Positions 29,467 to 57,341 of a stretch of 64,000 bases of DNA are shown here, one piece after another. Within the stretch, counting starts at the first letter, position 1. Each line of letters begins with the position of its first letter. The DNA comes from a virus: IMG/VR virus record IMGVR_UViG_3300042090_002370, positions 1 through 64,000 of that record, one strand, 5' to 3'. Under the pieces are notes generated by a model. The model worked only from the letters and a program-made list of their open reading frames with translations. It did not search any database and was not told the origin of the DNA. Made by a program: the position numbers and the translations under genes.

Positions 29467-30144
29467 ATGATGAACTGTCGAGGAAGAGAGCTGCCGGACC
29501 CGCTTGAGCTTGTTGTAAAAGGGTGCGAAGACACACCTATCGGCTACGCCTGTCCGAAGTGCGGAGCGTCGTACCTCATTCATAGGAGGAAAGACCCGAA
29601 GCTCTACGAGGCTGACCGCCAGCATCAACAAGAAGAAGCGGCGGCGCACTGTGTGAAGGAGTGCGTTTGTGGCGAGCTCATCGAGCAGTCTTACCGCCTT
29701 CGATGTCAGGCATGCCTGGCGCAGATGGAGGCGGACAAGGAGCAGAAACTGTTCGAGAAGGCGCAGAAGCTCCGCATTGAAGAGTACGACGGGCCGATCT
29801 ACTGGGAAGGGCATACCGGCGATATGGGCGATGGCTACTTCTCCGATGTGGACGCTCTGCTCGACTACTGCGAGCAAAACGGCGTAGAGGTCCCCGAGTA
29901 CACGTGGGCTTGTGAGAAGAATGAGCTGAAGCTACACGCCGAGCATATCGTCGAGAACGCCGTCTCGGACATGTATGAGGATGCGTATGACAGCATCCCG
30001 GAGAAGGCTATCGACTCGCTTCAAGCTTATCTCGATGCTTGGTGTAAGGAGGTAAGCATCGTTAGCTGGTCCGACGACCGCAGCCGCGTCATCATTCTGA
30101 GGGAGCAGGACGTCCCTCTGGAAGCGCCGGCGCTTGCGGGTTGA
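29467..30144 (+). CDS. Zn-finger-containing acidic hypothetical protein
   Basis: CPKCG, CVC, CQAC. Confidence 0.65.
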   Translation: MMNCRGRELPDPLELVVKGCEDTPIGYACPKCGASYLIHRRKDPKLYEADRQHQQEEAAAHCVKECVCGELIEQSYRLRCQACLAQMEADKEQKLFEKAQKLRIEEYDGPIYWEGHTGDMGDGYFSDVDALLDYCEQNGVEVPEYTWACEKNELKLHAEHIVENAVSDMYEDAYDSIPEKAIDSLQAYLDAWCKEVSIVSWSDDRSRVIILREQDVPLEAPALAG

Positions 30145-30153
30145 TGAAATTGG

Positions 30154-30191
30154 GGGCGGCTCGGGCAATCCGAGCTGCCCTTTTTTCTAGC
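30154..30191 (+). terminator. Intrinsic terminator
   Basis: GGGCGGCTCGG/CCGAGCTGCCC stem, T6, then CTAGC. Confidence 0.85.
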
Positions 30192-30214
30192 CTCTGGTAC
30201 GCTGGGTCAAGCGC

Positions 30215-30871
30215 ATGGCGACCGACTTCCAAGTTTGTTACCCTCAGTCGGTCATCCCGCTGAGCAGCGTGATGCAAGTTCCGGGCATGCAGCCTCGTAC
30301 GCTTCAGCTCGTGGGCAAGGACTTCTCTTCGGTCGACCAGGTTCTTATCAATGACCTGCCGTCGCCAAGCGTTGTTATCACCTCTAAGACTAGGCTCTTG
30401 GCCCAGGTTCCCTCGCAGCTGACCTATACGCTTCTGACTTCAGTCACGGTCACCTCATACAACCTTACCGTCTCGAAGCGCAGTCTCATCAAGTTTCAGA
30501 TCGGCAGTCCGGCCAGCAAAGTCTCCGGCATTCTTCGCCTACTGCAGATCTTCCTGAAGCTCCTGTTTACCACACCAGGGCGTGACATCTTCGCTCCACG
30601 TCTAGGTGGCAGCGGCTTGAAGAATGTGGGGGTCACCTTCGATTCAGATGAGGGCGGAAACATCGTCAGCGACTTTGTGCTTGCGGTGAGCCTAACTCAG
30701 AGACAGCTTCTTGCCATCCAGTCGAAGAACCCCACGCTGGCTAGCAGTGAGCGCCTCATGTCGGCTACTGTCTTGTCTGCGACCTATAGCCCTACCGAGA
30801 CAGCGCTCATTGTTTCCGTACAAGTTACTTCTCAAGCCGGGCAGTCCGCTACGGCAAACGTAATGGTGTAG
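30215..30871 (+). CDS. Baseplate protein (IPT/TIG-like N-terminus, gp25-like C-terminus)
   Basis: LLFTTPG.DIF.P..GG; position before the baseplate J-like gene. Confidence 0.65.
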   Translation: MATDFQVCYPQSVIPLSSVMQVPGMQPRTLQLVGKDFSSVDQVLINDLPSPSVVITSKTRLLAQVPSQLTYTLLTSVTVTSYNLTVSKRSLIKFQIGSPASKVSGILRLLQIFLKLLFTTPGRDIFAPRLGGSGLKNVGVTFDSDEGGNIVSDFVLAVSLTQRQLLAIQSKNPTLASSERLMSATVLSATYSPTETALIVSVQVTSQAGQSATANVMV

Positions 30872-55409: not shown

Positions 55410-55605
55410 GTGATGCAAAGGCAACGCAGACCCTGAATCCGCTTATGGGCTACGCGATGCCTGATATCGCCAGTCTTCGCGTTCACGGCCATCACCGGCC
55501 CGTCCACGGGGGGAAGATGAAGCACGACGTGGAATTGACGCCGGGTGCCGGGTGCCGGTGGTCGCGTGGCTCCAGGCGTAGACGCGAGTCCCGCTCTCTG
55601 CACTA
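55410..55605 (+). ncRNA. Candidate structured small RNA (about 190 nt)
   Basis: Downstream of the sigma70-type promoter; nested stems; no convincing ORF. Confidence 0.3.
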
Positions 55606-55617
55606 AGAACCCGGGTA

Positions 55618-55646
55618 GCTAAAAAAGAGGGCCCGTTGGGGCCCCC
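55618..55646 (-). terminator. Intrinsic terminator of the minus-strand replication operon
   Basis: GGGGCCC-CAAC-GGGCCCT followed by CTTTTTTAGC on the minus strand. Confidence 0.8.
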
Positions 55647-55649
55647 TGT

Positions 55650-55817
55650 TTACTGGCTGCGCCCCGCGTCCTCGAGCGCTGTGGTTTGTGGGCATGGCGA
55701 CGCGCCTACATCTATGGGCTTGTCGAAGTCATTACAGCGCGTTGTGATGAGCGCGAAGGCCAACCAGAATAGCAGGATTCCGACTGTGATGATGGCCTCC
55801 TTCGTGCGTCTCTTCAT
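55650..55817 (-). CDS. Small membrane/secreted protein (55 aa)
   Basis: Manual translation MKRRTKEAIITVGILLFWLAFALITTRC...; GGAG RBS. Confidence 0.65.
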   Translation of the reverse strand: MKRRTKEAIITVGILLFWLAFALITTRCNDFDKPIDVGASPCPQTTALEDAGRSQ

Positions 55818-55821
55818 GGTG

Positions 55822-56028
55822 TTACTCCGCTTGGTTTCTTTTGAGCCGTACTCTCACGAGGTCTGGAAAGCGTTCTTCCTCTACAAGCAATACGCCAGCC
55901 CGGCGAGCGAGTTCGATAATCGATCCGTGGCTCACGGTATCCAGCAGCGCCTCATCGACTTCGATGAAGTCCAGTTTCTGCGGGCGCGTGGTACCCGGCC
56001 ACGGATCGTCGAGTACAGCTCTTACGCT
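55822..56028 (-). CDS. -1 frame extension (68 aa) of the 56022..56951 gene, reached by a putative programmed frameshift
   Basis: Open frame without a 5' start, beginning at G GGA AAA and ending 4 nt before the next ATG. Confidence 0.65.
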   Translation of the reverse strand, partial: SVRAVLDDPWPGTTRPQKLDFIEVDEALLDTVSHGSIIELARRAGVLLVEEERFPDLVRVRLKRNQAE

Positions 56029-56951
56029 TTTCCCGTTGCCTGGTTGACGATGGACTGGAAGTTGTTCCCGTCCTCTATCGCACTGCGCAGAACGTCGATG
56101 GGGCTGACCCCGTTCACGGCTGACTGTGACTGCAGAAGCATCATCATGGTCCAGATCTGGACCTTCCAGGTGCTCTCTACGAGATTGGTGAGCGTGGTCA
56201 TCTGCGCCGTGAGCGCCTTGTATTGAACCTCCAGTTCGGTAATACGACTGGCCTTCATGCTGGCGGCCTCCTCGAGAATCGAGGAGACGTTCTTCTGCAT
56301 AGCGTCGTAACGTTCACGGTCCTTGTCTTGACCGTCGATAAGACGCTGTAGGAAGTTGATGACGTCGGCGCCGAGGTCGACTGCGGCACCTGCGCCGGCG
56401 TTTGTTTTAGGTGCGCGCTTCGGTTTCTCGCCGGCAGCGACGGCACCAGCCGCAGCGATGGCACCAGGGCTCACGTTGGGGATGAAGCCCGGTCCTGCAG
56501 TCACAGCGCCGGCAGCGGCGACACCGACGACCCCGACGCCGCTGGTCAACGGCGTGGTCATCGTGGTGGGAGGTGGCACAAACCCGGTTGTAGGCGCGCC
56601 TATGGGGGCAACGGGCTGCATCTGCTGCACACCCGGCTGCAGTGAGCTTGCCATCGAGTTTACAACGGGGGTGCGTTCGACGACTGGTGCCGGCATTGCG
56701 TGGCCGGAGACACCGTTGGTTGGCGCTGCAGCGCCTGGGTTCTGCTGGTCCCAGCGTTTCAGTAGTTCGAGGATGTATGTGACGCGGGCATCGGTAGTTT
56801 TGAGCTGGTACCAAGCTTGCTTCTCGGCTTCAGTGCGCATACTGCCGAGGTGACGCTCTGCGAGTAGGCGCAGCTGGAACGGGCTCTTCTCTGCCAGTGC
56901 GACAGCGTCACGCGGTGCGTTCTGCGGGGTCAATTCATTCGGGTCAGCCAT
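56022..56951 (-). CDS. Hypothetical protein with Pro/Ala/Gly linker and coiled-coil C-terminus
   Basis: GGAG RBS; ends ACG GGA AAA GCG TAA. Confidence 0.75.
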   Translation of the reverse strand: MADPNELTPQNAPRDAVALAEKSPFQLRLLAERHLGSMRTEAEKQAWYQLKTTDARVTYILELLKRWDQQNPGAAAPTNGVSGHAMPAPVVERTPVVNSMASSLQPGVQQMQPVAPIGAPTTGFVPPPTTMTTPLTSGVGVVGVAAAGAVTAGPGFIPNVSPGAIAAAGAVAAGEKPKRAPKTNAGAGAAVDLGADVINFLQRLIDGQDKDRERYDAMQKNVSSILEEAASMKASRITELEVQYKALTAQMTTLTNLVESTWKVQIWTMMMLLQSQSAVNGVSPIDVLRSAIEDGNNFQSIVNQATGKA

Positions 56952-56960
56952 TGTAGTCTC

Positions 56961-57341
56961 CTAACTTTTCTTGTGCAGCAGGATGAGCCGTTGGTTCTCG
57001 GCTCCGTTTGAGGTGAGGCAGCTGTACACCTGAGCGTCGACGCAGGCGAAGCAGGCGTCGGGCTTGAAAGAGCGTGCGGGACACGTGAGCTGTGTCTCGA
57101 GTTTCTTTCTATGATCGATGATGAATTTCATGAGAGCAATGCGTGTCTCATCCACGTCGTGGAACGGCAGCGGCGGGGGTGGTACTTCACCGATGATGAT
57201 TCGTATGAGGGCGTCGCGACTTAGGCTGGGTAATACAACGTGTCCGGCACCGCGCGCAATCTGGTAGATCTCTGTATGGTTGCAGCGCTCGAAGAGAGCG
57301 TACTCTGCAGCGAACTCAGGTGAGACGGTCGAAGACGTCAT
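56961..57341 (-). CDS. Cys-motif hypothetical protein
   Basis: CPA......CFAC.D....C. Confidence 0.6.
   Translation of the reverse strand: MTSSTVSPEFAAEYALFERCNHTEIYQIARGAGHVVLPSLSRDALIRIIIGEVPPPPLPFHDVDETRIALMKFIIDHRKKLETQLTCPARSFKPDACFACVDAQVYSCLTSNGAENQRLILLHKKS

Follow-up and report, generated by a model that had tools for sequence, protein, structure and literature searches.

The stretch of DNA analysed here, which we refer to as the window, comprises the first 64 kb (64,000 nucleotides) of a 163.9-kb metagenome-assembled viral contig in IMG/VR, and its minus strand carries a replication/recombination operon. In operon order, the genes encode a family-A DNA polymerase (PolA), a UvsX/RecA-like recombinase, a Holliday-junction resolvase, a Cas4-like exonuclease, a weak UvsY-like protein and RusA; past RusA, the operon continues with a 126-aa protein, the gene under study, which we predict to be frameshifted, a 55-aa hydrophobic protein and a terminator. 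The gene under study is thus the last large gene of the operon. Its upstream neighbour, a protein of ~126 aa when read from the ATG at 57341 (57341..56961, minus strand), holds a conserved position between RusA and the gene under study, and the order Cas4-like exonuclease, RusA, ~120-aa neighbour and gene under study is kept in every relative with enough flanking DNA. On the other side, the ORF for the small hydrophobic protein (55817..55650, minus strand) is the last gene of the operon, the end of which carries an intrinsic-terminator-like hairpin with a T-run (55647..55626, minus strand). A preliminary description of this DNA, made from its letters alone, had named RusA, Cas4-like and RecA genes as neighbours and had noted that no tape measure gene lies nearby, and both statements are confirmed in the window. 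The window contains no tRNA genes.

The gene under study is read as an ORF of 309 aa encoding P0001, the predicted short isoform (56951..56022, minus strand). Its 3' end reads ACG GGA AAA GCG TAA, which places a candidate slippery heptamer, G_GGA_AAA (56034-56028, minus strand), in the X_XXY_YYZ register, followed by a conserved G and standing one codon before the 0-frame stop, TAA (56024-56022, minus strand), that ends the short isoform. In the window as in the relatives described below, this is the register in which both tRNAs can re-pair in the -1 frame. The -1 frame itself continues for 68 new codons and a TAA stop at 55824-55822 (56028..55822, minus strand), an extension recognized from the sequence, from homologs and from its coding signature, which reads G K S V R A V L D D P W P G ... 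R L K R N Q A E. Joined to residues 1-308 of P0001, it would yield a long isoform of 376 aa. Upstream of the junction the -1 frame is open for 95 codons, yet it offers no ATG, GTG or TTG before codon 31 of the extension, and four bases (CACC) separate the stop of the extension from the next ATG, at 55817. The preliminary description had reported the ORF end and the heptamer in its register, 68 open -1 codons that lack a start at their 5' end and stop 4 nt before the next ATG, and predicted isoforms of 309 and about 376 aa; the sequence features are present exactly as described and the sizes are correct. The heptamer alone is not above chance, with three occurrences of GGGAAAA in the window against 3.76 expected, and the case for recoding therefore rests on context and conservation.

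Seven relatives of P0001 are present in the protein database, at 42-73% identity, and in all seven the gene callers leave a gap after the gene (~200 nt in six of them and 282 nt in L004). Further, more distant loci were found by using the 68-aa extension as a query against IMG/VR, JGI metagenomes, Logan and ENA assemblies, which brought the comparison to 17 distinct junctions drawn from ~19 independent assemblies, in which identity of the main protein falls as low as ~31%. G_GGA_AAA stands in register at 16 of the 17 distinct junctions, in the pattern N-N-G GGA AAA G-N-N, and a lack of the heptamer in homologs, which the preliminary description had named as grounds for abandoning the proposal, is therefore not what we find. 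The extension lies in the -1 frame at every junction compared. The 0-frame stop follows one codon past the heptamer in 15 of 17 cases, two codons past it in L022, and directly after AAA in L007. The codon that precedes GGA is ACG, ATG, AGG, CTG, CCG or GCG, representing six amino acids but always ending in G, while synonymous sites flanking the junction vary freely; the Gly-Lys pair is the sole invariant feature of the C-terminus of the main protein. In this genome, GGA makes up 12.2% of Gly codons, AAA 16.5% of Lys codons and G-ending codons 32.6% of all codons, and the chance that amino-acid constraint alone would produce the G-GGA-AAA triplet pattern is <1% per independent lineage. The register, position and conservation of the heptamer among relatives are far beyond chance, and its nucleotides are conserved beyond what the encoded amino acids need. 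These alignments indicate that the junction is conserved as nucleotides and not as amino acids.

Two loci are exceptions to this pattern, L007 and a short contig, L021, described below. In L007 (1051-1062), AGG GGG AAA TAG replaces the heptamer, with the extension intact and still in the -1 frame, such that only re-pairing in the P site would be possible; this locus either has a slip site of a non-canonical kind, working through the P site only, or reflects an error in its 1.5-kb contig. As a separate observation, the 16 junctions with the heptamer all have a G directly behind it (GGGAAAAG), and their 0-frame stop is TAA or TAG, never TGA, features that may belong to the signal as its 3' context.

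Given that the window derives from a metagenome-assembled viral contig, an indel introduced by sequencing or assembly into what is truly a single ORF of 376 aa, or the decay of a gene into a dead tail, could in principle produce the same picture. A break in frame at this very heptamer is seen again, however, in ~19 independent assemblies from different projects and assemblers, which also answers the concern, raised in the preliminary description, that reads might reveal an indel fusing the frames. In addition, no uninterrupted form occurs among 1.84 billion representative proteins, and the extension is under purifying selection, as set out below. We consider an artefact or a decaying gene extremely unlikely.

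Several lines of evidence argue that the extension is coding and is reached from the main gene. Pairwise differences in the extension frame are distributed over the three codon positions as 0.244, 0.165 and 0.463, and synonymous codon differences number 915 in this frame versus 231 and 160 in the other two, a pattern which indicates that the extension is under purifying selection. Identity of the extension among relatives ranges from 42 to 85%, and in the closer clade it is 72-85%, compared with 42-73% for the main protein of the same relatives. The motif AVLDDPWP, which opens the extension immediately past the junction, is nearly invariant. Across the loci, 14 of 19 have no ATG, GTG or TTG upstream of the invariant WP in the -1 frame; in the remaining loci the canonical -1 start sits 42-257 codons inside the main gene, with the exception of L022, where an ATG lies just before the WP motif. 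In L005, a canonical start is absent throughout the extension frame, from the upstream stop to the stop of the extension. The -1 frame of L023 is closed until 4 codons ahead of the junction, and the shift is therefore confined to 16 nt that contain the heptamer. The downstream frame thus overlaps the end of the 0-frame, is startless and is conserved as protein, more so than the main protein itself, where the preliminary description had allowed that it might prove unconserved or have a start of its own.

These observations bear directly on the idea that the 68 codons are a small gene in their own right, whose translation begins at a non-canonical start or through termination and reinitiation after the TAA. 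In some relatives, gene callers do annotate ORFs of 37-80 aa here, L022 carries its ATG just before WP, and an AGGAG-like string follows the stop directly in some relatives. The called starts are nevertheless internal and differ in position, and they remove AVLDDPWP, the most conserved part of the extension; no near-cognate start is conserved, 14 of 19 loci lack a canonical one upstream of WP, and L005 has none in the whole extension frame. A separate gene would also leave unexplained the invariant rare codons GGA AAA and the G that precedes them. A profile search of 1.84 billion representative proteins for the extension recovered neither a protein in which the two parts are joined in frame nor a free-standing one that has its own start; its matches were limited to ORFs of 37-80 aa with varying internal starts and three longer proteins, which matched solely in short repeated stretches and of which none carries a C-terminal in-frame fusion. 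Taken with the start-site evidence, we regard a separate gene as improbable, at roughly the level that we give below to slippage by RNA polymerase. Since the split is never fused, the shift from the main gene into the extension is apparently obligatory, which argues that both products are needed.

Downstream of the heptamer we identified a candidate stimulatory RNA, a long-range irregular helix (56021..55905, minus strand) with its base 6-8 nt 3' of the heptamer, recognized by folding and by conserved pairing in 15 homologs. The core of the helix is a perfect 11-bp inverted repeat, CGATCCGTGGC (56008-55998) and GCCACGGATCG (55931-55921), which begins 19 nt past the heptamer and encloses an inner hairpin, TCATCG-AAGT-CGATGA, at 55967-55952. 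The repeat and the hairpin are exactly as first described, but both form part of a larger helix, so that the distance from the heptamer is 6-8 nt and not the 19 nt originally given. When the 133 nt past the heptamer in the window were folded, the minimum free energy was -57.4 kcal/mol (z -3.05), with the base of the helix, GAGC, 6 nt from the heptamer. RNAalifold applied to 15 closer-clade sequences returned an interrupted helix of 16 pairs beginning 8 nt past the heptamer. In this consensus helix, 94.6% of cells are paired versus 19-39% when the partner arm is slid, as measured on the same sequences that defined the structure. Three pairs of the helix display compensatory double changes, a number reached in 0 of 500 shuffles; for example, GATCCG/CGGATC in the window corresponds to GACCCG/CGGGTC elsewhere, with both changes synonymous. 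Covariation of the stem among homologs, which had been suggested as a check, is thus seen at three pairs within the closer clade, whereas the helix is not conserved in the distant clade. Folded singly, 8 of 13 sequences gave z <= -1.69, over a range of -0.06 to -4.83, with values near 0 in L004, L017 and L022. Of the three distant loci folded, L023 and L025 have different local hairpins that start 6-7 nt downstream, and the third is L022, with its z near 0; the closer-clade helix is not conserved there. Because both arms encode conserved peptides, conservation of the helix is partly explained by protein constraint. Searching Rfam at E up to 1 gave zero matches in 55600-56300. Overall, folding and covariation point to a probable stimulatory RNA structure downstream of the heptamer.

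The sequence at the junction could also be the substrate of slippage at the level of RNA. If RNA polymerase were to drop one base or add two in the GGGGAAAA (G4A4) run, some mRNAs would have the two frames fused; the conserved element does consist of two short homopolymer runs, G3-4 and A4, and slippage by the polymerase and by the ribosome are inseparable by sequence data alone. Known transcriptional slippage in bacteria and phages, however, needs ~7 or more A or T, where here there are 3-4 (PMC5009743), and a slipping polymerase would need neither the conserved X_XXY_YYZ register, which includes the third base of the preceding codon, nor a structure at ribosomal spacing. For these reasons we think it improbable that the shift arises during transcription.

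We conclude that a programmed -1 ribosomal frameshift on G_GGA_AAA, giving predicted proteins of 309 and 376 aa, is the best explanation for this locus, with a probability of about 0.85. That the ribosome is what slips, how efficiently it does so, what the stem contributes and what the added domain does are inferences. According to the proposed mechanism, a ribosome at G_GGA_AAA would have its P site occupied by tRNA-Gly paired to GGA and its A site by tRNA-Lys paired to AAA. Some of these ribosomes would slip one base back, with the tRNAs re-pairing with GGG and AAA, and would then read S-V-R-A-V-L-D-D-P-W-P and onwards through the 68 codons to complete the 376-aa protein. Ribosomes that do not slip would read one more codon and stop at the TAA, giving the 309-aa protein. 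The structured RNA, whose base is found 6-8 nt further downstream, is probably hard to unwind, and this would promote the slip. The long isoform would thereby gain a small helical module, probably one that binds nucleic acid, in a fixed ratio to the short isoform. A point against the proposal is that the heptamer ends in A, unlike the A_AAG ending, with its final G, that is optimal in E. coli.

What the two isoforms might do was approached through models of the proteins. P0001 comprises an N-terminal helical domain (~16-70), a disordered linker rich in Ala, Pro and Gly (~76-194) and a C-terminal long helical hairpin (193-305). Its AF2 model is weak (pLDDT 53.6), and comparison of the model by VIA-align recovered generic helical hairpins only, at Z 8-10, values that are uninformative for helical proteins. 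The AF2 model of the extension has a pLDDT of 76.8, with helices at 26-29, 34-44, 49-53 and 55-67. The top VIA-align match to residues ~24-68 of the extension is the N-terminal domain of Rho (1a62_A; Z 4.6, rmsd 1.9 A over 43 aa), and the next matches are the LEM domain of emerin (Z 3.9), the SAP domain of Ku70 (Z 3.8) and the SAP domain of Hcc-1 (Z 3.6, rmsd 1.6 A). The SAP domain of FAN1, SLX4 and the SAP domain of PIAS1 are also in the list, throughout which the helix-extended-helix class occurs at Z 3.0-4.6, the best rows having an rmsd of 1.6-2.1 A over 39-45 aa; the scores are low because the motif is tiny. In BFVD, phage entries annotated as Rho_N, SAP or HeH/LEM appear repeatedly among the leading named matches, with Foldseek E-values that are not significant. 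Pfam Rho_N (PF07498), HeH (PF12949) and SAP (PF02037) had zero matches in the genome at E up to 10, and Pfam scans of each family member likewise gave no Rho_N, HeH or SAP match. The last ~45 residues of the extension may therefore be said to bear a weak resemblance to SAP/LEM/Rho-N helix-extended-helix motifs, at the level of fold only and short of demonstrated family membership, and on the models the extension is probably a nucleic-acid-binding module. Pfam and PHROGs searches with P0001, the extension and their neighbours assigned no family, and PDB sequence profile searches gave matches of low complexity or noise only. Matches to ADIP and to a 'hol-like' protein were rejected as sub-threshold coiled-coil noise.

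The preliminary description had also raised the idea of a displaced tail assembly chaperone, which would here be a counterpart of lambda G/GT. The type of slippery motif is indeed the same, the shift likewise lies close to the gene's 3' end, and the L025 protein has a sub-threshold Pfam match to Phage_TAC_7 (E 0.0067; 16.9 bits against a cut-off of 25). That match, however, is confined to 1 of 12 family members, and PHROGs gave none, so that no family match lies above its cut-off. Every long contig places the gene after PolA, the UvsX/RecA-like recombinase, the resolvase, the Cas4-like exonuclease and RusA, rather than upstream of a tape measure, and in no fetched locus was a tape-measure gene identified beside it. 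The architecture is also unlike that of a chaperone, at 240-390 aa with a disordered linker, and the extension is SAP/Rho-N-like, whereas lambda gpGT is known to use its T domain to bind the major tail protein. Neither position nor sequence supports the suggestion, and we rate a displaced chaperone as very improbable, less so only than an assembly artefact or a decaying gene.

Elsewhere in the window, a canonical G/GT-type pair was sought before a 1360-aa ORF (30881), where the ORF at 29467-30144 is without an in-frame X_XXY_YYZ heptamer and PHROGs identified no chaperone or tape measure. This ORF (plus-strand region 29467-30230) precedes ORFs of 218 and 1360 aa, and after it comes a strong hairpin that, with its T-run, looks like a terminator.

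The proposed programmed frameshift nonetheless has much in common with that of lambda. G_GGA_AAG is highly shift-prone in E. coli, and lambda sets its G:GT ratio by low-level -1 frameshifting (PMC5009743). As in lambda gpG/gpGT and many tailed phages, the predicted -1 slip takes place on G_GGA_AAR a few codons before the 0-frame stop and would give a short and a C-terminally extended product with a common N-terminal part, and, as in lambda, conservation of the split, with no fused version, implies that the ratio of the products needs to be set. Unlike lambda, the heptamer ends in A rather than in the G of G_GGA_AAG; the gene lies beside RusA in a replication/recombination operon and not before a tape measure; no chaperone family membership is found; and the added part, of 68 aa, is SAP/Rho-N-like, with a large downstream helix in the closer clade. 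In the dnaX gene of E. coli (tau/gamma), slippage occurs on A_AAA_AAG with a downstream stem-loop, and the shifted ribosomes terminate early to give the short form. The present gene resembles dnaX in its predicted -1 heptamer slip in a gene of DNA metabolism, a candidate hairpin at short spacing and predicted isoforms that differ by a C-terminal domain. It differs from dnaX in that shifted ribosomes would make the long form, and in that an upstream Shine-Dalgarno-like stimulator is not conserved. A further parallel is the major head protein of Lactobacillus phage A2, for which a -1 frameshift giving a C-terminal extension is cited in PMC10885494; there, too, a -1 slip near the end of the ORF extends a fraction of the molecules, but, unlike virion proteins of the A2 type, the protein described here belongs to a recombination module and has no detectable structural-protein similarity. 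At the level of the protein, the model of the extension superposes on SAP, LEM, HeH and Rho N-terminal motifs and differs from them in its lack of a Pfam match and its low Z.

Annotated phage frameshifts fall almost entirely in tail assembly chaperones, which one survey found to make up 2397 of the 2476 joined genes in SEA-PHAGES genomes (PMC10885494). Because joined genes there are nearly all tail chaperones, a conserved frameshift in a recombination module is unusual, and the present case, in which the type of mechanism is already known, is a previously unannotated one of recoding outside the tail-chaperone setting. It points to a -1 frameshift, deeply conserved and apparently obligatory, that uncultured phages of a large family share in a non-structural gene. 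It also corrects annotation, given that the 200-nt 'gap' represents coding sequence while the present gene calls there are absent or truncated. For recoding research, the heptamer together with a long-range helix and its natural compensatory variants provides a natural test case. In addition, what distinguishes the two predicted isoforms of this protein is probably a nucleic-acid-binding module, which opens its function to experiment. As a tentative suggestion based on the models, which we hold to be possible but well short of an even chance, the frameshift could fix the ratio between DNA-tethering (SAP/Rho-N-like) and non-tethering isoforms of a co-assembling, coiled-coil accessory protein of recombination or replication. 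If this were true, the 'many short, few long' logic of lambda G/GT would extend into phage DNA metabolism, with a large conserved mRNA helix tuning the ratio of isoforms.

DNA and protein searches of INPHARED phages with the region, P0001 or the extension gave zero matches, and the protein family is known from metagenomes only. The other exception at the junction, L021, a 524-nt ENA contig of 0.8x coverage, has A_GGA_AAA before a distant copy of the extension, and its upstream ORF resembles the end of a PLP-dependent acyltransferase (…DDAHATGFLGKTGRG…), such that the contig may be chimeric. Two other candidates were set aside: the one match from a scan of genome contigs, in Streptomyces spirodelae, is a 25-residue chance match inside a sulfotransferase-like ORF, and L020, which came up when metagenomes were scanned, resembles the 'LDDPWPG' motif by chance. 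P0025, an unrelated metagenomic protein of 260 aa, contains a tandem array of four repeats (…SEILDRITHANVVEQARQAGVST.G…), and these match the ELARxxG part of the extension profile, which suggests that this motif is also found as a repeat module elsewhere.

The two small neighbours of the gene under study have features of their own. The upstream neighbour, which is 116-129 aa long (L002 1481-1870) and has no Pfam or PHROG match, contains an N-terminal stretch (…HTEIYQIARGAGHVVLPSLSRDALIRII…) that, judged by eye, is helix-extended-helix-like, and a C-terminal cluster of four Cys, C-x10-C-x2-C-x8-C. Downstream, a small hydrophobic gene lies within a few bases of the extension in L005, L007, L008, L010 and L011 as well as in the window. 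The 55-aa protein has a conserved C-D-P-(D/E)-x-P-(V/I)-D-(V/M)-G motif, and, because this motif follows the hydrophobic segment, the protein may be a lipoprotein or a membrane protein.
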